A stretch of DNA of 64,000 nucleotides from Candidatus Carthagonibacter metallireducens (GTDB lineage: Bacteria > Gemmatimonadota > Gemmatimonadetes > Palauibacterales > Palauibacteraceae): NCBI GenBank assembly GCA_023554445.1, contig JAMJQQ010000119.1:1925-65924 (forward strand), given 5' to 3'. A program made the position numbers and the translations under genes. Under the pieces are notes generated by a model. The model worked only from the letters and a program-made list of their open reading frames with translations, was not told the DNA's origin and did not search any database. Shown here piece by piece: positions 8,963-22,023 of the stretch; the first letter of the stretch is position 1, and each line of letters opens with the position of its first letter.

Positions 8963-10741
8963 TCAACCGCCCAGAAGGGCTTCGATCTCGTCCATGATCA
9001 TCTCCATGCGCCGGAGAAGCGCCCGATACGGCTCCGGGTTGCCGAGGTCCACGCCGGCCCGGACCATCAGCTCGTACGGGTAGTCCGACCCTCCGGCTCG
9101 CAGCAGGTCGAGGAATCGCCCCCCTGCTCCGCTGTCCCCGGCGAGCAATTGCTCCGCCATCAGGGCGGATGCGGCTACGGAAGTAGCGTACTGGTATACA
9201 TAGAAGTTGTAGTAGAAATGCGGGATATAGGCCCATTCCACGGTGTAGGCGTCGTCTATGTCCACGACGCCCGCGTCATGCCCGTGATACCGTCGCACGA
9301 GTTCGCCGTACATGGCCGTCAGGCGGTCGCCCGACAGCGCCTCTCCCCCCTCGACGACTTCGTGAATCGCAAGTTCGTATTCTGCGAACATCGTCTGCCG
9401 GAAAAAGGTCCCGCGAAGGCCCTCCAGAGCATGACCGAGGAAGAAGATCCTCTCATCGTCGGTCTCCGATCGCTTCAGCAACCGATCCAGCAGGAGTGCC
9501 TCGATGAAAGTGGAGGCGACCTCAGCCGTGAAGATCGAGTAGCCGGCATTGACGAAATCCTGCGAACGGTTCGCGAGGCTCGAATGCAGCGCGTGTCCCC
9601 ATTCGTGGGCCAGGGTCGAGACGGAGCGATAGTCGTCCGTGAAATTCATCAGTACGTAGGGGTGGACATCGTAGACATGACCGTTCATGTACGCCCCCGG
9701 CCGTTTGCCGGGACGGGGGTAGACGTCCATCCACCCGCCGTCGAACCCCTGCTGAATGATCTCGATCGCTTCCGGACCGAGGGGTTCGACAGCCTCGAGA
9801 ACGATCGTCCGGGCCTCGTCGATGTCGAATCTCCGATCGGTCTTCACCAGCGGAGGGTAGATGTCGAAGTAGGCCAGCTGATCGATGCCCAGCAGTCGGG
9901 CCCTGAGACGGAAGTAGCGATGGAGGACCGGGAGACCCGCATTCGCTTCCTCGATCAGCGTGCGGTACACCCGCTCCGGGATATGGTCGGAATTCAGGGC
10001 TGCGGCCAGCGAGCTCGGGTACTTGCGGACGCGCGCCCGGAACAGGTCGCGCTTGACCTGACCGTACAGCGTCGCGCCAAAGGTGCGGGCGTACTCCTGC
10101 CACCTGGTCCAGAAGGCCTCGAACACGATTTCCCGGTCTTCCCGGATCGGCGAGGCTCGCAGCCGGGCGTAGGCCGACTGGTCCAGCCGTTCTTCCGAAC
10201 CGTCTGACAGCACGACCGTAGGCCACGGCATGTCGGCGTTGGCCAGCATTCCGTACACGGAGTAGGGTGAATCCGTAATCAGGCCGGCCGTCGCCACGAT
10301 CTCCTCTTCAGCCGGCGAAAGCGTGTGAGCTGCTCGCCTGAGGAGGTCATCCAGTCCGTGGGCGTAAACCTTCAGCGGAGCGAATTCCTCGAGCCAGGAT
10401 CGAACCGTCGCCTCACCGATTTCCAGTATCTCGGGGTCGACGAAGCTCGCTGCTTCCGACAGCGCGGTTCCCACCAGTCGCGCCCGCTGCTCCATCTCCG
10501 CCGTCTCCCCCAATCGCGTGTCCTCGTGATACCGCATCGAGGCGTACGAGGAAGCGCGGTAGAGTCGCTTCAGGCCGTCGTAGTACGAATCCAGACATTC
10601 GACGAGGACGCCGGGGCCCTCGGCCAGCCGCCCCCGGAAGGCCGAAATCCGTTCCGGCAGCTTGGCCAGTTCCGCGAGGTCCGCCTCCCAGTCCGACCGA
10701 TCCGGATAGATGTCCTCGAGCCGCCAGCGATCGACACTCAC
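8963..10741 (-). CDS. pepF: Oligoendopeptidase F (M3B family)
   Basis: HEWGHALH zinc motif and global PepF-like sequence. The start is placed at GTG 10741 (VSVDRWRLEDIYPDRSDWEADL), overlapping the upstream stop in GTGA. The ORF-track N-terminus overlaps the EVE gene and is Arg-rich junk. Confidence 0.8.
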   Translation of the reverse strand: MSVDRWRLEDIYPDRSDWEADLAELAKLPERISAFRGRLAEGPGVLVECLDSYYDGLKRLYRASSYASMRYHEDTRLGETAEMEQRARLVGTALSEAASFVDPEILEIGEATVRSWLEEFAPLKVYAHGLDDLLRRAAHTLSPAEEEIVATAGLITDSPYSVYGMLANADMPWPTVVLSDGSEERLDQSAYARLRASPIREDREIVFEAFWTRWQEYARTFGATLYGQVKRDLFRARVRKYPSSLAAALNSDHIPERVYRTLIEEANAGLPVLHRYFRLRARLLGIDQLAYFDIYPPLVKTDRRFDIDEARTIVLEAVEPLGPEAIEIIQQGFDGGWMDVYPRPGKRPGAYMNGHVYDVHPYVLMNFTDDYRSVSTLAHEWGHALHSSLANRSQDFVNAGYSIFTAEVASTFIEALLLDRLLKRSETDDERIFFLGHALEGLRGTFFRQTMFAEYELAIHEVVEGGEALSGDRLTAMYGELVRRYHGHDAGVVDIDDAYTVEWAYIPHFYYNFYVYQYATSVAASALMAEQLLAGDSGAGGRFLDLLRAGGSDYPYELMVRAGVDLGNPEPYRALLRRMEMIMDEIEALLGG

Positions 10742-11202
10742 GACGCCTCTCCGCGTGCCAGTTCGACGACCCGGTCGAAGTGTCGCCTGTCCACCGGTTG
10801 GACGGACAGCCTGCTCTTCCCGGTCACCAGCATCCCTTCGAGCGCCGGCTCGGCCTTCAACTCTGAAAGCGGCACGGGGCGAGGAAGCTCTTCGACGAAG
10901 GCGATGTCGACCATCCACCATCGGGGCTCCTCGGGACTCGACTTCGGGTCGAAGTAGCGGCTTTCCGGGTCCCACGAGGTGTGGTCCGGGTAAGCCTCCC
11001 TGCACACCCGCGCAATCCCGACGACGGAAGGAGGGTTCGCGTTGGAATGGTAGAACAGGACCGCATCGTCCTGCTGCATCTCGCGCATCAGGTTGCGCGC
11101 CTGGTAGTTACGCACGCCATCCCAGCATGTGGATCCGTCCCGTTCCAGATCGTCTATGGAGTAGGCGCCAGGCTCTGATTTCATCAGCCAGCAATTCGAC
11201 AT
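10738..11202 (-). CDS. EVE (PUA-like) domain protein
   Basis: The start MSNCWLMKSEPGAYSIDDL is typical of the EVE family (WLMKSEP...). The ATG at 11202 has an AAGGGA SD. Confidence 0.7.
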   Translation of the reverse strand: MSNCWLMKSEPGAYSIDDLERDGSTCWDGVRNYQARNLMREMQQDDAVLFYHSNANPPSVVGIARVCREAYPDHTSWDPESRYFDPKSSPEEPRWWMVDIAFVEELPRPVPLSELKAEPALEGMLVTGKSRLSVQPVDRRHFDRVVELARGEAS

Positions 11203-11369
11203 TGAAGCGCTCCCTTGGAGGTCACGTCCCACCGAACCCTCGGCGACCGCGAGGCGGCGCCGGAATCGGGCCGCGATCAGGATACGGGAAGGCCGCCGCG
11301 GCGCAACCTCGGTGCCGGGACTGTCCGGTCATTCCCGTGCGTCAAAGCCTCGGTTGAGGCTCGACAAAC

Positions 11370-11917
11370 TCAGGTATGCGGCGTGGTCGCGGACCCGGCA
11401 ACCAGCAGGGACGAGCATTCCGTGCAGAATCGCTCGCTCTTCAGGTCGACGTCTTCGACATAGGTGGAGGACGACATCACGCAGGATCTGTCCGGGCAAT
11501 GGACCAGCCCGAAGCCATGTCCGAGCTCATGTACGACTTCCTTGACCGCTCGATCGACCAGGAGTCGTTCGTCGGTGGGCAGACCATAGAACTCGGTGTG
11601 CAGACGCATCACAGACACGACGGCGGCCGGACCTCCCAGTTGGGCCTGCCCGAACACGAAGGTGAGCACGGGAATGAACAGATCCTCCGCCGTGATTCCG
11701 ACGATCCTGCCGCCCGAGGCGGGCAGATGGCGAAGCAGCTCCGCGAGCAGGAGCGTGGCGTGATATTGCTGCCGTTCGGGGGCATAGAAGGGCGCGAGAT
11801 CAATACCGAGGGGCTCGGCACGAACGAAATGGTCTGTCGCCGCGGCCACCCGACGGCGCAGTTCTTCCGACCACGTCGGCCGGAAGCTCCCCAGGTGCGC
11901 CAGCAGGATCTCCGGCT

Positions 11918-11921
<4 letters not shown>
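11370..11921 (-). CDS. Archaemetzincin (peptidase M54)
   Basis: Has HELGHGFGLVHCPDRSCVMS, the archaemetzincin HExxHxxGxxHC zinc plus Cys motif. It overlaps the RR gene stop by 4 nt. Confidence 0.75.
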
Positions 11922-13253
<1,332 letters not shown>

Positions 13254-13264
<11 letters not shown>

Positions 13265-14942
13265 CAGATCTCCTCGCGGCCGTACCGCTGCCGGCTGCGA
13301 CAGCGACCGATTCGAATTCCGGCCGGTAGGGCCGGGTGGGCTGCCTGGGCAGCCGCAGCGTGAAGGTGGTCCCCTTGCCGGGTGCCGAATCGACCAGAAT
13401 CTCTCCCCCATGCCGGCGAACGATTCCGAATACGACGGCCAGACCGAGCCCGACACCCTTGGTTTCGTTCTTCGTGCTGAAGAAGGGATCGAAGATGCGG
13501 TCCCTGACTTCGGGTGGAATGCCGGAGCCGATATCCGCTACGCCGAGTCGCACGAAGCGGTCGTCGGTCGGATCGGAACCCGTGGTCAGAGTGAGACTTC
13601 CCCCCTCCGGCATCGCCTCGATCGCGTTGATCATCAGCGCCAGCAGAGACTGGACGATCTGTTCGCCGTCGCAGACGACTTCGTCGTCCTCGAGGGCCAG
13701 GTCCGTCTGGAGCTCCACCTCGCTGAGCTGCATGTGATGGCCCATCAGGCTGATCGCATGATCGACCAGGGAATGAAGGTGCTCCGGGGCCAGTTCGTGC
13801 GTTCCTTCCCGCGCGTACGTGAGCAGGTCGCGCACGATGTTGCCGCAGCGGACCGACTCCGAACGGATCAGCTCGAGGTTCTCGAGCGTTCTCTCGCGGG
13901 CCTCACCCGGCGGCATCTCCCGCTCCACCTTGCGAGCCACCAGCCGCGAACAGGTAAGGATCCCGGAGAGCGGATTGTTCAGCTCGTGGGCGACGGTCGC
14001 CGCCATCTTGCCCAGTGAAGAGGTCTTTTCCACCTGCACCATCTGTTTGTGTATCGCAGCCAGTTCCTGCGTCTTGTCTCGTACCCTCTCGGCGAGAGTG
14101 TCGGACCAGTGCCTGAGTTCGTCGTTCGCCTGCTTCAGACTGCCGGCCATTCGATTGAAGGAGTCCGCCAGCTGTCCGAGCTCGTCGGTTCGTTCCTCGG
14201 GAATACGGATGTCGAGGTCGCCGGCCGCCAGCGCCTCCGTACCCTTGATCAACTGGCGAGTGGGCTGGTGCACACCACGGTGTACGATGAAGGCCAGGGC
14301 GGCTCCTAGCAGCAGGGCGATTGCCACTCCGATCGCGAGACTGGATCGCTCCGCCCGGAGCATCGCCGCATCCGTCTTGGCGAGGGACATCTGGACATCC
14401 AGTACGCCGAGCACCGTGTCATCCTGGTCATGCACGTGGCAGGCATCGGCACATCCCTGACGGTTCCGGATCGGCGTAATCAGTCGCAGTACTCGAAAGC
14501 CGGCTTCGTGCACGTGGATCTGGGAGAGATCCTCGATGCTGGGTGACGAAAGTGGGAGCTCCGTCTCATGGCAGGCGAAACACGCCTCCGCCTGCATGTC
14601 GACGCGGGTACCGAGCTCAGCCGAGTCTGAGGAGAACGCGACTTCTCCTCGCTTGTTGTAGATCCGGACTCCGACGACGTCCGGCCCCTCACCGAGGCTG
14701 CGAATCGCGTCGTTGATGTGCTGCCGGTTGTTCTCGGCCATCTCGGTGAGGAGGCTTCCCTCGAGGAAGGTGCTCGCCCGCTCCGCTCCGGAGAGCACCT
14801 CCTCCTGCACCACTCGCGTCCGAATCCAGTTGGCGATCTGGTGATTGCCGAGCAGAATCAGCAGTACGGCGCCGAGGAGCACGACGAAGAGGCGAGCGCT
14901 CAGGGACGAGCGGATTCTCGTGGGCCAGGACGAGGAGGCCAT
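13254..14942 (-). CDS. Sensor histidine kinase with a periplasmic sensor domain carrying CxxCH/CxxxCH motifs, then HAMP, HisKA and HATPase
   Basis: Two TM helices flank a roughly 170-aa periplasmic region containing EACFACHETE and GCADACHVHD. HAMP is followed by an H-box (VAHELNNPLSGI) and ATPase motifs. It is coupled to the RR by an 11-nt overlap. Confidence 0.85.
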
Positions 14943-15092
14943 GTGAGTCCTCTGTGTTTCGTAGGGGCCTGCCGCACCCGGGTCCGGTTGGCGCGGAGCG
15001 GGGCCCTCCGACGACCGCTCAGCGCAGCAGAATACGTGCCGAAGTCCAGCGGACGGGACTGACGCGGGAAGGTGCCTGCGTTTCCCTCGAGC

Positions 15093-15878
15093 TCAGAACA
15101 GGGCGTCGATCATGGCGGCGAAGCGGTCCGGTCCGAGTACTCTCTCGAGATCCAGCTGTGGCTCCCCTCCATCGGCCATGACGGCACCCAGCTGGAGGCG
15201 ATCCGAATCGAGCGCGCCGCGGATGTGACTCTTCAGGATTCGAAGCCTGCGCAGGTGCCAGATCAGCGCATCTTCTCCCCGGAACAGTCTCGGCACCTCG
15301 GAAGGCCGAACCGCCGCTCGGACGCGAAACAGCCAATTGTCGCGTCCATCCACGTGTCCCGACCCTCCGATCTCGTCCACCAGCGGTTCGTTGACCTCCG
15401 TAACGGTGCCTCCTACCGGAAGACGAATGGGGATCGCCCGCTCCGACCGAAGCAGCCAGCCGCACGTCTCGCCCTCTTCGAAGCTGACTCCGGTGCGAGG
15501 TGCGACGATTTCCTCGACGGGCTCCAGTATCCTCCAGACGCAGCCGACCAGGCCGACTTCGAGCTCGTTGGAATCGCCTGCTGGACGAGCCCACACACCG
15601 TCTCCTCCGTACCAACGACCGAGGTCCAGGCGACAGCCGGCCAGGAGTTGCGAGACAAACTGGCCCACTTCGGCCTCCAGACGCCGCTGAGTCTGGGACA
15701 GATTCGGACACCGCACCGCCGACTCATCGTCGATTGCGTGACCTCCGGAGAGGGCGTGATAGAGCTCACAGCTGTCACAATCGTATTCCCGGTCGCACGG
15801 ATGCATACCGAGCACCCCCGCCAGTGACCACACGCACGGGAGCTCCGAATTCGGATTCGCAGATTCGCTTCGATTCAT
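15093..15878 (-). CDS. GcvH-fold (glycine-cleavage-H-like) protein with an N-terminal Cys-rich region
   Basis: The C-terminal segment matches the GcvH pattern (VGLVGCVWRILEP...RLPVGGTVTEVNEPL...DGRDNWLFRVR) but lacks the lipoyl-Lys. The N-terminus has C-x5-C-x2-C (HPCDREYDCDSCELYH). It is paralogous to the 15930 and 18949 genes. Confidence 0.6.
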   Translation of the reverse strand: MNRSESANPNSELPCVWSLAGVLGMHPCDREYDCDSCELYHALSGGHAIDDESAVRCPNLSQTQRRLEAEVGQFVSQLLAGCRLDLGRWYGGDGVWARPAGDSNELEVGLVGCVWRILEPVEEIVAPRTGVSFEEGETCGWLLRSERAIPIRLPVGGTVTEVNEPLVDEIGGSGHVDGRDNWLFRVRAAVRPSEVPRLFRGEDALIWHLRRLRILKSHIRGALDSDRLQLGAVMADGGEPQLDLERVLGPDRFAAMIDALF

Positions 15879-15929
15879 CGGTCCCCCCTCGCCTGCTGGG
15901 ACGATCGGACGACTCAGCCGGTGCGCTTC

Positions 15930-16685
15930 TCAAGCCTTTACGTTCTCGTCTTCCGCGACATCCATCGGGGAGACGAGCAGGAAGCTGCGCACGATCTCCT
16001 CCCAGTCCTCGGGGGCGAGAGTTCGTGCCAGTCCAAATCGGGGCTCTCCTCCGTCGGCCAGTACGGCCCCGAGCGCGCTTTCCGGCGCGCTGACTGCGAG
16101 CCCCTGGAGCGACCGCTCCGCCATTTCCGCCCACGAGCGAGCCAGGCTGCCGGTGAGGAGGTTTCGACGCACAGGCTCGATGGAAGGAACACGCACCCTC
16201 ATCAACCAGCCATCGCCATACGGGTCTCGACTCGCCGTCGAGGGCTCGTCGATCACCCGATCATTGAGCTGAACCACCTCCCCGTCGACCGGCGAGACCA
16301 TCGGCAGTTCCCGCCCCCCGGCGGTAATCGTCCATGCCGGTCCGCCCGCACTCAGCCGTGTGCCTTCGGGCGGTAGCTGAATCCGGTCGGGCGGGCCGAT
16401 CAGACGGCGCGCAAAATCGTCCCAGCCGATCACGACCTCTCCGTCGCTTCCTGCCATGCGGGCCCAGGAGTGCCCCGGGTGAAAGAACACACCGTTGCCC
16501 GGAAGAGCGACCCCACGGAGAAGGCTTCTCCAGTCCGCCTCCCTCTCCCGATGTGACTCGGACACCGCAACTTTCGGCGCCCGAATGAGTTGCCAGGCGA
16601 CGGTGAGGAGCAGCAGGAAGCTGATGACGACGATGTATTCGATGCCCTTCGTTCCGAACAGCTCGGGCTGAACCATGGCGTACAT
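15930..16685 (-). CDS. Membrane-anchored GcvH-fold protein (no lipoyl-Lys)
   Basis: N-terminal TM helix. HSWARMAGSDGEVVIGWDDFARRLIG...PMVSPVDGEVVQLNDRV...DPYGDGWLMRVRV aligns with E. coli GcvH (HEW...VGIT.HAQ..LGD...P.SGE.V.VN...PY.GGW.FK.K). Confidence 0.65.
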   Translation of the reverse strand: MYAMVQPELFGTKGIEYIVVISFLLLLTVAWQLIRAPKVAVSESHREREADWRSLLRGVALPGNGVFFHPGHSWARMAGSDGEVVIGWDDFARRLIGPPDRIQLPPEGTRLSAGGPAWTITAGGRELPMVSPVDGEVVQLNDRVIDEPSTASRDPYGDGWLMRVRVPSIEPVRRNLLTGSLARSWAEMAERSLQGLAVSAPESALGAVLADGGEPRFGLARTLAPEDWEEIVRSFLLVSPMDVAEDENVKA

Positions 16686-16704
16686 GGCGAAGCGTCCTTT
16701 CCGT

Positions 16705-17964
16705 TCACGCCGCCGTGGCGGCAGAGGCGTCCGCGGGTCGTCCTTCCTGCGGCCGAACGTGGAAGTCCAGCACCGGCATCCGGTTGATGACCCATCGGAA
16801 CACCCAGATCTCGGCGGATATCACACCCAGCGTAACTACGATCTCCTGCCACGACGGTACGTATCGGACAGGCGCATTCCACTGGAACCCGATGACCGTG
16901 ACGTTCAGTCGATTGATGATGATCCCGACCAGCGTGAGAACCGCGGCCGATTTGATCCACCGCGTGTCCCTGCGACGAGCGCCGACCAAGAAGAGCACCG
17001 CCGGCAACGCGACGAGCCCGACGATTTCGAGGAGGTACCAGGCGCCCCAGCCCGTGCCCATCCATGCGGCCCTGCCCTGGTGCACGAAAGTGATCACCTG
17101 GACGCCGAGATACGCGAACATCGTCCCGGCACAGATGCGTGAGAGTCCGATCAGGATTCCATCGTGCCCCTCGCGCAACGGCTGGCCCAGCCGATCCCGA
17201 AACACCTTGTGGGTGATCGTTCCCTCGAAGATCACCATGGAGAGTCCGGCGAAGATGCTGGAGACCAGGAAGAGAATCGGGATGAACTCCGAGTACCAGA
17301 GGGGGTGAATCTTCGTCTCGGCCATCAGGTAGAGCGCTCCGAGCCCCGACTGGTGCAGGGTCGAAAGCGTGATACCCAGCACCACCGCACCCAGGGTCAG
17401 AGCGTGAAGGCGCTTTCGAAGCTTCGGCCAACCGGCCCATTCGGCGATCACCGGTGAGAACTCCACCAGCTCCGCCGTCATGTAGAGGAGGAAATGCCAG
17501 GCGACCAGGAATAGAACCGAGCTCACCCCGAAGGAATTGCCGATGATCGGGTTGATCACGTTCCATGGACGACCCAGGTCCAGGAGAAGGGCTCCGGCGT
17601 AGAAGACGTACGCGAGGAAGCCGTTGAGAACGGTCACCCGAACGATCGGCTCGTATTTCTCGAGGCGCAGAATGTAGACCATGAAGGTGATGACATAGGC
17701 GCCGCCCGCGAGAGCGACCCCTGTAACCACGTCGAATCCGATCCACAGCCCCCACGGAACATCCTGAGACAGATTCGTTATCGTGCCCAGTCCTCCCGCG
17801 AACCGGATCGTCAGGAGCACGATCGTCACCAGGATCAGGGCTCCCGTCACGATGTTGAACGGGGTCAGCACCGGCCCCCTGGGCTTGAGCTCACCGAGCA
17901 GGAAGCGACCGAATCCACGGATTCCGCCGGAAGGTCGTGTCTGGAGCGAAGTAATCGTCGCCAC
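16705..17964 (-). CDS. NrfD/PsrC-family polytopic membrane subunit (quinone-interacting anchor)
   Basis: 419-aa protein with about 10 TM segments and NrfD-family character. Its start abuts the FeS gene stop (17964/17966). Confidence 0.75.
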   Translation of the reverse strand: MATITSLQTRPSGGIRGFGRFLLGELKPRGPVLTPFNIVTGALILVTIVLLTIRFAGGLGTITNLSQDVPWGLWIGFDVVTGVALAGGAYVITFMVYILRLEKYEPIVRVTVLNGFLAYVFYAGALLLDLGRPWNVINPIIGNSFGVSSVLFLVAWHFLLYMTAELVEFSPVIAEWAGWPKLRKRLHALTLGAVVLGITLSTLHQSGLGALYLMAETKIHPLWYSEFIPILFLVSSIFAGLSMVIFEGTITHKVFRDRLGQPLREGHDGILIGLSRICAGTMFAYLGVQVITFVHQGRAAWMGTGWGAWYLLEIVGLVALPAVLFLVGARRRDTRWIKSAAVLTLVGIIINRLNVTVIGFQWNAPVRYVPSWQEIVVTLGVISAEIWVFRWVINRMPVLDFHVRPQEGRPADASAATAA

Positions 17965-17965
17965 G

Positions 17966-18862
17966 CTACACCTCCTCTCGCGTGTCGTCGCCCGAACGCC
18001 GTGTCGCCTCGCTGATCCCCAGAAGGAGAGGCGGTACGAGGGTGATCACGAAGGGAACCGCGTAGAGGAATTCTTTGGTGAGCGCCGGGACCGGCTCCAC
18101 GCCGACGTCCGATCGCAGTCCGATCTCCTCGAAGGGAACCGCGGAGAGGTAGAGCCAGCTCGTTCCACCGACTTCGTGCTCACCCCAGACTCGATGGACG
18201 TACTTGTCGGGCTCCGACCATATTCTCTTGTGGCCTTCCTCGAGCATCTCCGCCCGGGTTCCGAATTGTGTCGCCCCGGCCGGACAGCCCTCCACGCAGG
18301 CGGGGACTTCGCCCTCGTCCAGACGCGCGAAGCACATCTGACACTTCCTGATCCTGGGGTTCGCGCTGAAGTACTCGAACTTCGGCACGTCGAAGGGACA
18401 GGAGACCATGCAGTACCGGCACCCCATGCACTTGTCCGCTCGCCAGACCACAGGACCCTCAGAGGTCTTGTGCATGGCCTGAGTCAGGCAGGCCGAGGCA
18501 CAGGCCGGTGTCAGGCAGTGGAAGCACTGCGTCTTGACGCTGACTGTCCCCTTCGAGGTTTCGTACTGGTTCACGACGGTGAAGCGCGTGTCATCCGTCC
18601 GTCGCCGTGCGGAGAAGTCCACCTTCGGCTCAGGTTCCGGCAGATCGTTCTGGTTCGCGCAGGCGAGCTCGCACATGCGGCAACCCATGCACTTGGTCGT
18701 GTCCACGAGCACCGCCATGGGCTCGGCTGCCGGGTCGGTCGTCGCCTCCGGTAGAGATGTGGCCGCTCGTGCGACCTTCGAGTGCCCTCGCAGATCGCGG
18801 CCGACGGCCACTGATCCGCCCAGGACACACAACGACCGAACGACATCTCGTCTCTTCATCAC
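17966..18862 (-). CDS. Tat-exported four-cluster [4Fe-4S] ferredoxin subunit (NrfC/PsrB/HybA type)
   Basis: Twin-arginine signal (MMKRRDVVRSLCVLGGSVAV). Four Cys clusters: CMGCRMCELAC, CFHCLTPACASAC, CMGCRYCMVSCP, CQMC...CVEGCP. Confidence 0.8.
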   Translation of the reverse strand: MMKRRDVVRSLCVLGGSVAVGRDLRGHSKVARAATSLPEATTDPAAEPMAVLVDTTKCMGCRMCELACANQNDLPEPEPKVDFSARRRTDDTRFTVVNQYETSKGTVSVKTQCFHCLTPACASACLTQAMHKTSEGPVVWRADKCMGCRYCMVSCPFDVPKFEYFSANPRIRKCQMCFARLDEGEVPACVEGCPAGATQFGTRAEMLEEGHKRIWSEPDKYVHRVWGEHEVGGTSWLYLSAVPFEEIGLRSDVGVEPVPALTKEFLYAVPFVITLVPPLLLGISEATRRSGDDTREEV

Positions 18863-18948
18863 AGCCCCCTTATCGATCAGGGCGTAGCGGATCGAGGGCG
18901 GATGCCGGAATCAGGAGGAGCGTCCCGGATTCCGCCCGCATCCGAAGG

Positions 18949-19629
18949 TCAGGTGTGGAGAAAGCGGGCCTCGAATTCGGACCAGGCGTCGGCATCGAGT
19001 TCCGCCAGAGCGCCAACCGGTACCTCGCCTCCATCAGCGAGGGCCAGGCCCACCTCACCGTCGGCCAGGGCTCGCTGCAGGTATTCCCTGATTCTTCCGT
19101 AGCGGTCGCCTGCCCACTCCGTCGCAGGCGTTCCGATCATCCAGGAGGGCACGTCAAGCGCGAGGTCATCCGGCTGCACGCGGTACAACCAGGCACGATC
19201 GAGCGAATCGGCCTCATGGTCGGTCAGGCTCCCCGACGCAAATCGATTGCGTGCGGTGATCTTGCCACTGAGAGGTGCCCGGACCCGAGCTGACTTGTCG
19301 CCCGTACCTATTTCGAGGATCGGATCGCCGCGATCGAAGTGCTGGCCCGGCTCCGCGAGCGAGTACCGGGTCTGCTCCCCGACGAGGCCCTGGAGCATCG
19401 GGTGTACGCCGACTTCGACCGTTCCATCGGGAACGACGCGACTCCAGGTGAAGCCATTCTGGAGGAATATTCCCTCCGGTACCGATCCCACCCAATCCGT
19501 GAGCGGAGCCGGTCCCACACGAGCGCCGCCGGATTGCACCTCCAGCCGAGCGCGGCGAGGTCGCTCGATGAGGAGGTGATACCCTCCCAGCGCGACGACC
19601 ACGGTCATAAGAAAGGCTGCCGCAAGCAT
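18949..19629 (-). CDS. Membrane-anchored GcvH-fold protein (third paralog; keeps a Lys at the lipoyl position)
   Basis: N-terminal TM helix, then FTWSRVVPDGTVEVGVHPMLQGLVGE...ILEIGTGDKSARVRAPLSGKITARN...AWLYRV. The C-terminal LALADGGEVP motif is shared with the other two paralogs. Confidence 0.6.
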   Translation of the reverse strand: MLAAAFLMTVVVALGGYHLLIERPRRARLEVQSGGARVGPAPLTDWVGSVPEGIFLQNGFTWSRVVPDGTVEVGVHPMLQGLVGEQTRYSLAEPGQHFDRGDPILEIGTGDKSARVRAPLSGKITARNRFASGSLTDHEADSLDRAWLYRVQPDDLALDVPSWMIGTPATEWAGDRYGRIREYLQRALADGEVGLALADGGEVPVGALAELDADAWSEFEARFLHT

Positions 19630-20000
19630 GGTCTCCTCCCCTCTGATTCAATTCCGCCGGTCACCGCGCTCTTCGTCGTTTGGTCGCGCGGTCAACAGAT
19701 CCGACAGTTGCGGAGGTGAGTGGCAAGAGGGGGGCCGCACGGACAGAGTGTGCGGTGAGAGCTGGTAAGTCACCTACTGTTGGACCTTTACAATGCTCGA
19801 GATCGGCGGCGATGGGCAAGGACGTCAACAGGCTTTGTCGAATTATCCTACAGCCGGGTTGCCGCAATCCGTTCAAACTCGCCACGAAGCCCTTGAATTC
19901 AGCCACGCCCAGTTGTGGGATACTTCACCAGCCGTATGTGGAGGATTCCGACACCTGACAGGCAGGCCGGGCGACATGTCCGGGGAACCGAAACCGCCAC

Positions 20001-21290
20001 ATGCATGGCTGCCATCCCCTCTATCTGAGGACCATTGCGCGTTGCTGCCGGCAAGGCGCACTTTCGGCCGACACGACTCGGAGGCAAGCCGGACTTCCTT
20101 CTATCCGGTTACACGGGTTGACTGAGACGACGACCATACCGGAGCCGCGTGAACGTGGCCCCCTGGACCATCCCCTGGTTCGGGCGGCCCTGGTACTTCT
20201 GTTGCTCTACGTCTTTCTCGTCGGAGTCAACGGTCTCGGAGACGGATTCAAGTCGCTGGGAGCCGGGCTGCTCGACTCCTTCTTCCGTGCCACCGAGAAT
20301 CCCTTCATGGGGCTGATGGTCGGAGTTCTCGCAACGACCCTGGTGCAGAGCTCCTCTGTATCGACTTCCCTGATCGTTGGCCTCGTGGCGGCCCCGGCGA
20401 ATCCTCTCCCGCTGGCCAACGCCATCCCGATGGTCATGGGCGCCAACATCGGGACGACCGTGACGAACACCCTCGTCTCGATGGCTCACATGGGACGCCG
20501 TCAGGAATTCGAACGGGCATTCGCCGTGGCCACGTGCCACGACTTCTTCAACTTCCTGGCGGTAGCGATCTTCCTCCCGCTGGAGATGGCGACCGGCTAC
20601 CTGCAGAAGTCGGCGACCTGGCTGTCCGGGAAGCTGACGGGCATCGGGGGCGTCGAATACGACAGTCCGTTGAAGGGAGCTCTGAAGGCTACCGTCGCAC
20701 CCATCAAGGATGTGCTTCAGGCCATCCTGCCGACCGATCGCCTGGCGGCCGTGGCGCTGATTCTGGTCTCCGGCCTCCTGATTTACCTGGCCCTGATGCT
20801 GCTCGTGAAGACCATGCGCAGCTTCATGCAGGCCCGGGTAGAGACGATCGTGTCCCGTGGCCTGTACAAGGCGCCGGCCTTCGCGATCGTCGTCGGGATC
20901 GTGGTCACCGTCATGGTGCAGTCGAGCTCGATCACGACGTCGCTCCTCGTGCCCCTCGCTGGAGCCGGCCTGATCACCCTCGAGCAGGCCTTCCCGATCA
21001 CCATTGGCGCCAACATCGGTACGACCATCACGGCCGCTCTCGCGGCACTTGCGGCGACCGGCCCGAACGCGCGGTGGGGGATCACGATCGCCCTCGTTCA
21101 CTTCCTGTTCAACCTCTCGGCGACTCTCTTCATTTACCCGATTCCGAGGATCCGGGAGATCCCGCTGAACGCCGCGAGGAAGCTGGCGTCCATTGCGGTG
21201 GAATCGCGCAGGTGGGCGCTGATTTACGTGCTCGCATTGTTCTACGGAGTGCCGCTGCTGTTCGCGGGGCTCAATCACCTACTCAACTGA
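20001..21290 (+). CDS. Na+/phosphate cotransporter (PNaS/NptA family); true start probably later (TTG 20118)
   Basis: Has LGDGFKSLGAGLLDSFFRATENPFMGLMVGVLATTLVQSSSVSTSLIVGLVAA and an internal repeat with QSSSITTSLLVPLAGAG, the Na_Pi_cotrans signature. The first 40 aa of the ORF are non-hydrophobic junk. Confidence 0.8.
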   Translation: MHGCHPLYLRTIARCCRQGALSADTTRRQAGLPSIRLHGLTETTTIPEPRERGPLDHPLVRAALVLLLLYVFLVGVNGLGDGFKSLGAGLLDSFFRATENPFMGLMVGVLATTLVQSSSVSTSLIVGLVAAPANPLPLANAIPMVMGANIGTTVTNTLVSMAHMGRRQEFERAFAVATCHDFFNFLAVAIFLPLEMATGYLQKSATWLSGKLTGIGGVEYDSPLKGALKATVAPIKDVLQAILPTDRLAAVALILVSGLLIYLALMLLVKTMRSFMQARVETIVSRGLYKAPAFAIVVGIVVTVMVQSSSITTSLLVPLAGAGLITLEQAFPITIGANIGTTITAALAALAATGPNARWGITIALVHFLFNLSATLFIYPIPRIREIPLNAARKLASIAVESRRWALIYVLALFYGVPLLFAGLNHLLN

Positions 21291-21303
21291 AGCCGGGGAC
21301 AGC

Positions 21304-22023
21304 ATGCTGAAGGAACTGATCTCGCTGTTTCGATCCGACCAGCCGCTGCAGGAGATGGGAAAGAACTTCGCGGCGATGCTGAACCTGACGTACGAGATGA
21401 CGATACAGGCTGGCGAGATCTTCTTCGGTGGAGTGGTATCGCCCTCGGACAGCAACAGCCTGTACCAGCGCGATATCCAGGTGAACAAGCTGGAGCGCAG
21501 AATCCGCAAACAGGTGATCGCGCACCTTTCGCTCTCCGGCTCAACTCCCTCTCTCCCCTACTGCCTTCTGCTGGTCAGCCTCGTCAAGGATGTGGAGCGG
21601 ATCGGCGACTACGCGAAGAACCTCGCCGAAGTCAGGCAGTATCATCCGCTTCCGCTGCCCGACGACGAGTTCGTGGCTGAGTTGCAGGCCATCCGTGAGG
21701 GCGTCGAACAGTCGTTCGTCCAGAGCAGAGAGGTGTTCGTGGCGTCGGATCGGGAACGGGCGCTGGACCTGATCCGGGAGGGCCGAAGTCTGACACACCG
21801 GTGCGACATGCTCGTGGCGAGGGTCGCAGCGAGTGACTACGGAGCCCGCGACGCGACGGCGGTCGTCATGGGCGCTCGGTTCTACAAGCGGATCGCCGCG
21901 CACGTCCTGAACATTCTGTCGAGCGTAGTGATGCCTCTGCACAAGCTGGATTATTACGACGAGAAGGAGCTTCCGCCGGAATTCGCCGACCTCGAGGGAA
22001 CGGCTGACGACGAGGACGATTAG
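21304..22023 (+). CDS. PhoU-domain phosphate-transport regulator
   Basis: 239-aa protein with two PhoU-like repeats (DVERIGDYAKNLAE). It follows the Na/Pi transporter, as in NptA-PhoU pairs. Confidence 0.7.
   Translation: MLKELISLFRSDQPLQEMGKNFAAMLNLTYEMTIQAGEIFFGGVVSPSDSNSLYQRDIQVNKLERRIRKQVIAHLSLSGSTPSLPYCLLLVSLVKDVERIGDYAKNLAEVRQYHPLPLPDDEFVAELQAIREGVEQSFVQSREVFVASDRERALDLIREGRSLTHRCDMLVARVAASDYGARDATAVVMGARFYKRIAAHVLNILSSVVMPLHKLDYYDEKELPPEFADLEGTADDEDD

Follow-up and report, generated by a model that had tools for sequence, protein, structure and literature searches.

A kinase with a putative two-haem periplasmic sensor domain in a conserved NrfCD-like gene cluster of Gemmatimonadota and other bacteria

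Among the genes of a 64,000-nucleotide stretch of DNA from Candidatus Carthagonibacter metallireducens (GenBank assembly GCA_023554445.1, contig JAMJQQ010000119.1; the window in what follows), one encodes a sensor histidine kinase with two putative attachment motifs for haem c in its extracytoplasmic domain. From sequence comparison, this domain almost certainly belongs with the periplasmic haem-c single-Cache sensors (sCache_heme, PF21563-like), as a variant with two haems. As a whole, the protein would probably sense the redox state of the periplasm through these haems and, by the NtrB-type kinase fused to the sensor, drive the operon of a module of the NrfCD kind together with its own operon, a reading that we favour with some reserve. 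It is based on the topology of the protein, its Cache fold, its homology to the Geobacter sulfurreducens chemoreceptor GSU0935, the conservation of both motifs and of two candidate ligands (M68 and H171), operon coupling, synteny and promoters. An initial annotation, made from the letters of the window and a list of its open reading frames (ORFs), had already proposed a haem-c sensor feeding an NtrB/NtrC-type system linked to an NrfCD-like module, and homology, conservation, fold, synteny and promoters all support this proposal. Haem-c Cache sensors have been recognised as a large family only recently, and the biochemical data that we found concern one-haem members only.

The sensor kinase and its relatives

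The kinase gene starts at an ATG preceded by an AGAGGA ribosome-binding site. Hydropathy places two transmembrane (TM) helices at about residues 17-37 (TM1) and 200-222 (TM2), and the Pfam domains HAMP (221-271), HisKA (310-379) and HATPase_c (425-534) follow TM2, with H319, within the sequence HELNNP, as the H-box histidine. The peptides EACFACHETE (residues 119-128) and GCADACHVHD (163-172) both lie in the loop between the two helices, and their cysteines C121, C124, C164 and C168 are the sole ones among residues 1-330. The initial annotation had located a CxxCH and a CxxxCH motif between the TM helices of a periplasmic sensor; they are found at residues 121-125 and 164-169, and the loop can be placed in the periplasm on account of the positive residues before TM1 and of the HAMP domain straight after TM2. 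Moreover, the 336 six-frame ORFs of at least 100 residues in the window (75,559 residues) hold one CxxCH and one Cx3-4CH in total, both in this loop. These sole occurrences, together with an expectation from composition of about 0.0017 CxxCH per 160 residues, argue that the motifs are not there by chance.

Relatives of the kinase, both near and remote, were retrieved by a word-index search, and every one of them has both motifs. When 1.84 billion cluster representatives were searched with a profile, 1757 relatives emerged at E<=1e-3, each being a cluster at 50% identity, and 251 at E<=1e-30. Related loci were collected from species-representative genomes with family-specific peptide patterns (n=84); this locus search was run with a 5-sequence alignment, as an alignment of 123 sequences was too diverse for that purpose. 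Motif 1 is a CxxCH in all 84 loci, and both haem motifs are kept in 84/84 of them as well as in 244 of 260 retrieved homologous proteins, so the conservation of the Cys and His residues among orthologs, on which the initial annotation depended, is borne out by alignment. The 260 homologues comprise 233 proteins with CxxCH plus Cx4CH, 7 with CxxCH plus Cx3CH, 4 with CxxCH twice and 16 with a single motif, which are probably fragments. The family norm is thus CxxCH plus Cx4CH. Among the 84 loci, Cx3CH is confined to 10 loci of Gemmatimonadota, those nearest to the window, and for this reason the CxxxCH of the window kinase, present as first annotated although it is not the form of the family, is best read as a lineage-specific one-residue deletion of the family-wide Cx4CH.

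Conservation extends to residues outside the motifs. In 215 aligned sensor domains M68 is 100% conserved and H171, which forms a CH-x-H pattern with motif 2, is 93% conserved, the latter being present in 82 of the 84 loci. Further near-invariant positions of these domains are R93, G99, S104, R141, R150, P157, N160, G179 and D182. The window kinase itself has Gln141 at the place of the near-invariant Arg (97%), and the Gemmatimonadota clade shows a His-rich I-H-V-H segment instead of I-F/Y-x-x (kinase residues 141-145, about 14508..14522); both peculiarities may imply different haem propionate contacts or ligands in this clade. The closest genomes are metagenome-assembled genomes of Gemmatimonadota, with sensor domain identities of 82-90%, and the family also spreads over Ignavibacteriota, Bacteroidota, Calditrichota, Acidobacteriota and Thermodesulfobacteriota. 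Its members are labelled in databases only as "ATP-binding protein" or "NtrC family sensor kinase".

The family to which the sensor domain belongs emerged from profile comparisons. The initial annotation had likened it to the DUF3365/Tll0287-like domains, and had suggested a search with the corresponding profile. At the level of Pfam this label fails: PF11845 has no match to the window kinase at E<=1 and matches 2 of 123 family members at E<=0.01, and the nearest family is PF21563 (Mcp40H-20_sensor), the only match of the sensor domain, which recognises 79 of the 123 members at E<=0.01. In the window kinase, this match covers the C-terminal third of the model only and scores 19.3 bits with the whole kinase and 23.8 bits with the isolated domain, the threshold being 27. 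The label does hold at the level of the superfamily, in that a Tll0287-like profile retrieves GSU0582 and GSU0935 and unites all of them in a single family named sCache_heme, in which the CxxCH is strictly conserved (PMC12889525, a 2026 preprint).

When the 123-sequence family profile was compared with all PDB sequences, the sensor of GSU0935 came first (3b42_A, E=7.7e-6), and that of GSU0582 was also found (3b47_A, E=1.4e-3). A search of the PDB with the single sequence had returned just a chance CxxCH match to cytochrome c555; the homology emerged with the family profile. The profile alignment sets motif 2 on the C-Q-S-C-H of GSU0935 and the invariant methionine of the family on chain residue M26 of 3b42, which is Met60 of the protein, the offset between chain and protein numbering being 34. 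The haem of GSU0935 is held by Cys140, Cys143 and His144, with Met60 as the distal ligand (PMC8396549), and this Met is exchanged upon changes of redox state and upon binding of NO or CO. Given this register and offset, C164, C168 and H169 would be the equivalents of the haem attachment site and M68 that of the distal ligand.

An AlphaFold2 model of the sensor domain, built on the 123-sequence alignment, reached a mean predicted local distance difference test (pLDDT) of 85.6 and a predicted template modelling score (pTM) of 0.80. In this model, a long N-terminal helix is followed by a second helix, two strands and a helical segment with motif 1, and then by two more strands, a short helix with motif 2, the last strand and a C-terminal helix. 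With E-values between 6e-6 and 3e-3, the top matches of a Foldseek search of the PDB comprised 3b42 and 3b47 besides the single-Cache domains of WalK, KinD, DctB and CitA.

The conserved cluster and its sigma-54 elements

The kinase is part of a gene cluster with a conserved order: a GcvH-like gene, an HmcB/NrfC-like gene, an HmcC/NrfD-like gene, one or two further GcvH-like genes, the two-haem kinase, a sigma-54 regulator and an archaemetzincin, which in the window occupy 11370..19737 of the minus strand (Table 1). This order recurs in metagenome contigs and genome loci (L001-L084) of Gemmatimonadota, Ignavibacteriota, Bacteroidota, Calditrichota, Acidobacteriota, Kryptoniota and Thermodesulfobacteriota. 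Among the 45 fully flanked loci, the regulator is present in 44, a GcvH-like gene in 40, and NrfC, NrfD and, downstream of the regulator, the M54 peptidase in 39 each. In Calditrichota the NrfCD block stands on the opposite strand, still adjacent to the kinase. In the literature open to searching, no papers turned up on NrfD with GcvH or on NrfD with archaemetzincin, nor did we come across an account of the conserved cluster with its promoters.

As had been annotated initially, the kinase lies directly downstream of the NrfC/NrfD-like pair on the same strand and is paired with a sigma-54 activator, the start of which overlaps the kinase stop by 11 nucleotides. Kinase (HisKA, HATPase_c) and regulator (REC, AAA+ with GAFTGA, HTH_8) conform to the NtrB/NtrC-type pattern. 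The start of the archaemetzincin gene overlaps in turn the stop of the regulator.

Two elements of the sigma-54 -24/-12 type were recognised in front of the two operons. The one upstream of the kinase, cGGCACgtattcTGC, stands out as conserved, within a spacer that has otherwise diverged, when the Gemmatimonadota relatives are aligned, and several of the kinase-upstream sites of relatives are a perfect TGGCACG-N4-TTGC. Between -330 and +15 of the kinase start, GG-N10-GC sites with up to two mismatches occur in 35 of 79 loci, against 5.4 expected. The second element, the degenerate cGGCcCccctcTTGC, is in register with a TGGCAY-N5-TTGCC that Gemmatimonadota relatives conserve about 100 nucleotides upstream of the first GcvH-like gene. 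The mapping of promoters with TGGCAC-N5-TTGC, as the initial annotation had advised, works for conserved variants of this sequence upstream of both operons and not for the exact consensus, which has no match in the window. A scan of the whole window allowing two mismatches showed no enrichment (18 found versus 14.8 expected); what makes the two sites credible is their position and their cross-species conservation, and only that. Since such elements are conserved upstream of each, the kinase operon and the NrfCD operon very likely depend on sigma-54, and the activator encoded beside the kinase suggests itself as the regulator of both. A scan for sigma-70 promoters and terminators yielded nothing useful.

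Table 1. Features of the kinase, its gene cluster and the associated promoter elements (window positions)
Feature	Position	Strand	Remarks
Archaemetzincin (peptidase M54)	11370..11921	minus	NF033823, 157 bits (cut-off 145)
Sigma-54-dependent response regulator	11918..13264	minus	REC (D56), AAA+ with GAFTGA at 221, HTH_8
Sensor histidine kinase, 562 residues	13254..14942	minus	TM1, sCache domain with two haem motifs, TM2, HAMP, HisKA, HATPase_c
Periplasmic sensor domain (predicted)	14346..14831	minus	Residues 38-199, single Cache fold
H171	14430..14432	minus	CH-x-H pattern; candidate distal ligand of haem 1
Putative haem motif 2, C164-A-D-A-C168-H169 (Cx3CH)	14436..14453	minus	Aligns with Cys140/Cys143/His144 of GSU0935
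Putative haem motif 1, C121-F-A-C124-H125 (CxxCH)	14568..14582	minus	Extra segment between strands beta2 and beta3
M68	14739..14741	minus	Invariant Met on the N-terminal helix; aligns with Met60 of GSU0935
Sigma-54 -24/-12 element cGGCACgtattcTGC	15027..15041	minus	Starts 99 nucleotides upstream of the kinase ATG
GcvH-like protein c	15093..15878	minus	Cys-rich N-terminus
GcvH-like protein b	15930..16685	minus	TM-anchored
HmcC/HybB/NrfD-like integral membrane subunit	16705..17964	minus	Quinone-interacting kind
HmcB/HybA/NrfC-like protein	17966..18862	minus	Four-cluster ferredoxin domains, Tat-like RRDVV N-terminus, C-terminal TM anchor
GcvH-like protein a	18949..19629	minus	N-terminal TM anchor
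Degenerate sigma-54 -24/-12 element cGGCcCccctcTTGC	19723..19737	minus	About 100 nucleotides upstream of GcvH-like a

Proposed signalling and its alternatives

A plausible mechanism can be drawn from these elements. The haem of motif 2 (haem B) would be attached at C164 and C168, with H169 as the proximal ligand and M68 as a labile distal one, as in GSU0935; with M68 on a helix predicted to be continuous with TM1, this haem could be the switch. The haem of motif 1 (haem A) would be attached at C121 and C124, with H125 as the proximal ligand and H171 as the probable distal one, and if ligated in this way it would be a low-spin haem suited to electron relay. Periplasmic carriers would reduce or oxidise the haems, the Met ligation and spin state of haem B would change, and the N-terminal helix would move, thereby setting autophosphorylation at H319 through TM1, TM2 and the HAMP domain. 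The phosphoryl group would then pass from H319 to D56 of the regulator, which would activate the sigma-54 promoters of the gcvH-like/hmcBC-like operon and, by positive autoregulation, of its own operon. Such a circuit would match the quinone-linked electron-transfer module to the redox state of the periplasm.

Several observations weigh against this reading. The covalent haem c of the window kinase is something that we infer from its sequence, and no haem shown experimentally on any two-motif member was found in the searchable literature. The window kinase falls under the Pfam gathering threshold for PF21563, and the confidence of the AlphaFold2 model is lowest precisely in the two motif segments (pLDDT 67-77), a drop to be expected of a model from which the cofactor is missing. 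The synteny figures given above for the 84 loci describe the orthologous subfamily and not all 1757 relatives. On the regulatory side, the element upstream of GcvH-like a has in the window the form cGGCcC-N5-TTGCC, with two mismatches, and a comparison of three promoter regions for a shared upstream activator site revealed only scattered 10-mers. Neither cytochrome c maturation genes nor rpoN were found within the window. Finally, the sCache_heme members linked to signalling have been argued to be sensors of nitric oxide (NO) and not of redox state (PMC12889525).

This last argument leads to an alternative in which what the haem-c Cache domain detects is a diatomic molecule, NO above all, that displaces the labile Met of haem B, the redox state not being the physiological signal. 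GSU0582 and GSU0935 do bind NO in both redox states, and carbon monoxide when reduced, with displacement of Met60 (PMC8396549); the signalling-linked sCache_heme members act as selective NO sensors (PMC12889525), and the invariance of M68 would be in keeping with this role. However, among the conserved neighbours of the kinase, namely the quinone-linked iron-sulfur/NrfD module, the GcvH-like proteins and the metalloprotease, there is no NO-detoxifying or denitrification gene, and the second haem motif, conserved throughout, suits an electron relay better than ligand binding. We regard a gas sensor as unlikely on balance. A domain devoid of haem is a far more improbable proposal, to which we give very little credit: the four conserved cysteines, arranged in two pairs, could in principle hold a metal centre (Zn or Fe-S) or form redox-active disulfides, leaving the adjacent histidines for other uses, but an invariant His directly follows each Cys pair, the spacings of two to four residues are within the range reported for Geobacter sensors (PMC8396549), and motif 2 and the invariant Met align with the thioether-bonded Cys140/Cys143/His144 and with the distal ligand, respectively, of the crystallised GSU0935.

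A different question is whether the NrfCD pair is the target of the kinase or, instead or besides, a part of the sensor. HybA/HmcB-type subunits normally require a periplasmic partner, and the kinase haems could be the dedicated redox partner of the HmcB/NrfC-like subunit, in such a way that NrfD, NrfC and the kinase would form one device reporting on menaquinone. The NrfC-like protein would face the periplasm, as deduced from its Tat-like signal; the domains of the two TM-anchored GcvH-like proteins are probably cytoplasmic, judging from the positive residues after their N-terminal anchors (the positive-inside rule); and the kinase is the only CxxCH-bearing ORF of the cluster in 38 of 44 loci, chance CxxCH in NrfC-like proteins aside, with a linkage kept across phyla. 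On the other hand, nothing indicates a physical contact, the NrfCD genes are missing nearby in 6 of the 45 fully flanked loci, and the sigma-54 promoter that Gemmatimonadota conserve in front of the NrfCD operon suits a regulatory target equally well. Moreover, in a few distant loci a gene for a small c-type cytochrome adjoins the NrfC-like gene or immediately precedes the kinase gene (5534..5839 in L002, 5036..5641 in L003 and about 9509..9892 in L076), and its product could serve the module as another partner on the periplasmic side. We consider such a wired sensor of the quinone pool quite doubtful. In its widest form, the whole seven-gene cluster would be a single undescribed redox-sensing device, in which NrfD and NrfC wire the menaquinone pool directly to the two kinase haems and in which the membrane-anchored, non-lipoylated GcvH-like proteins and the archaemetzincin are obligatory, an idea that we consider just as doubtful.

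With a two-haem redox sensor as the favoured reading, the fixed genomic partners and recognisable sigma-54 promoters of the kinase offer a concrete circuit by which non-model anaerobes and facultative bacteria could match a quinone-linked module to the periplasmic redox state. The kinase family also gives a functional handle on the uncharacterised cluster of HmcBC-like, GcvH-like and archaemetzincin genes, and this conserved cluster is in our opinion the most interesting lead of the analysis.

Neighbouring genes and known systems

The partners of the kinase show some features of their own. The two subunits of the NrfCD-like pair score best against HmcB/HybA and HmcC/HybB, under the equivalog cut-offs in both cases (317 versus 420 and 398 versus 550). 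The three GcvH-like proteins (226-261 residues) score far under the GcvH cut-offs; in proteins b and c the sequences show no Lys at the place expected for the lipoyl-lysine, and the N-terminus of protein c has the pattern C-x12-C-x6-C-x2-C. Translationally coupled to the regulator, the archaemetzincin is a constant, unexplained companion of the two-component system. It carries the motif HELGHxxGxxH, and its Cys-rich segments (HCPDRSC, FCTEC) might provide a second metal site.

Past the archaemetzincin, the region 8963..11232 of the minus strand contains an ORF of 680 residues (8963..11005) that was called mechanically and merges two genes, one for an EVE-domain protein (10738..11202, with its ATG at 11202) and one for an M3 oligopeptidase F (PepF), from a GTG at 10741; the split is called alike in the syntenic contig L001. 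Outside Gemmatimonadota neither gene is part of the cluster. A third sigma-54-like match upstream of the EVE gene (11317..11303) was rejected, its GGCAC half not being conserved in relatives. What the Gemmatimonadota relatives do conserve there (about 11270..11310, minus strand) are the blocks GGTTGCG and CGTATCCT, resembling -35/-10 elements, and these blocks, together with the unconserved sigma-54-like match, indicate that EVE and PepF probably stand outside the regulon. The peptidases that the initial annotation regarded as co-transcribed with the kinase are thereby reduced to the M54 archaemetzincin, conserved beside it, the M3 oligopeptidase being placed behind an EVE gene that has conserved -35/-10-like elements of its own. 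At the other end, genes for a Na/Pi cotransporter and a PhoU-domain protein (20001..22023, plus strand) diverge from the cluster, in the same arrangement as in contig L001.

With regard to known electron-transfer modules, HmcBC of Desulfovibrio and HybAB of Escherichia coli hydrogenase 2 consist, as the pair in the window, of a Tat-exported iron-sulfur subunit with a C-terminal anchor and an NrfD-type subunit. Unlike them, the window cluster has no HmcA cytochrome, hydrogenase or HmcDEF, and three GcvH-like genes are found instead.

Among sensors, Tll0287/DUF3365 and the Pseudomonas sCache_heme proteins share with the window kinase the Cache fold, an inserted CxxCH helix, the extracytoplasmic location and, in some cases, fusions to HAMP and signalling domains (PMC12889525; bioRxiv 10.64898/2026.05.25.727664). 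They differ in having one haem, with Cys/His ligation in the Tll0287 type and NO binding in the signalling members, whereas the window kinase has two motifs; the main text of the sCache_heme preprint contains no mention of "two heme" or "diheme" (PMC12889525). A closer likeness is that to GSU0935 and GSU0582 (3b42, 3b47; PF21563), the Geobacter sulfurreducens chemoreceptors, whose sensor domains are likewise placed between TM helices, with a Cache/PAS-like fold and a HAMP domain after it. In these proteins and in the window kinase alike, the haem motif lies in a short helix before the last strand and the distal Met, or its putative equivalent, on the N-terminal helix. The chemoreceptors have one haem (CxxCH) and a chemotaxis output, whereas the window kinase has an additional CxxCH in an enlarged beta2-beta3 segment, a Cx3CH at the homologous site, where the family has Cx4CH, the conserved histidine of the CH-x-H pattern and a histidine kinase output.

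Sensors with two motifs are not without precedent in Geobacter, where a CX2-4CH signature and a two-component protein with two haem-c motifs, GSU0599, have been described (PMC8396549, PMC3831638). Already in 2006, GSU0599, GSU0591, Adeh_2011 and Adeh_3383 were noted to combine a GSU0935/GSU0582-like domain with an additional motif (PMC3831638, PMC8396549), and the window kinase, compared by description only, fits this account, having a domain homologous to that of GSU0935/GSU0582 and one additional CX2-4CH. We found no characterisation of GSU0599 or of the other two-motif sensors in the literature. By locus number, GSU0599 adjoins the gene of BccR (GSU0598), a sigma-54 regulator that, acting on a sigma-54 promoter, induces the operon cbcBA of an inner-membrane quinone oxidoreductase as the potential falls (bioRxiv 10.1101/2021.04.15.440034). 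This is the nearest precedent for the proposed circuit, and the pair of GSU0599 and BccR resembles, again by description only, the kinase and regulator of the window; the term "histidine kinase" has 0 occurrences in the main text of that preprint. The two systems diverge in their surroundings: the target of BccR in Geobacter is the bc-type cytochrome CbcBA, and no archaemetzincin has been reported for GSU0599/BccR, whereas the window cluster includes an archaemetzincin, an HmcBC/NrfCD-like pair and GcvH-like proteins. The two-haem kinase is a further member of this known, little-studied branch of haem-c Cache sensors.

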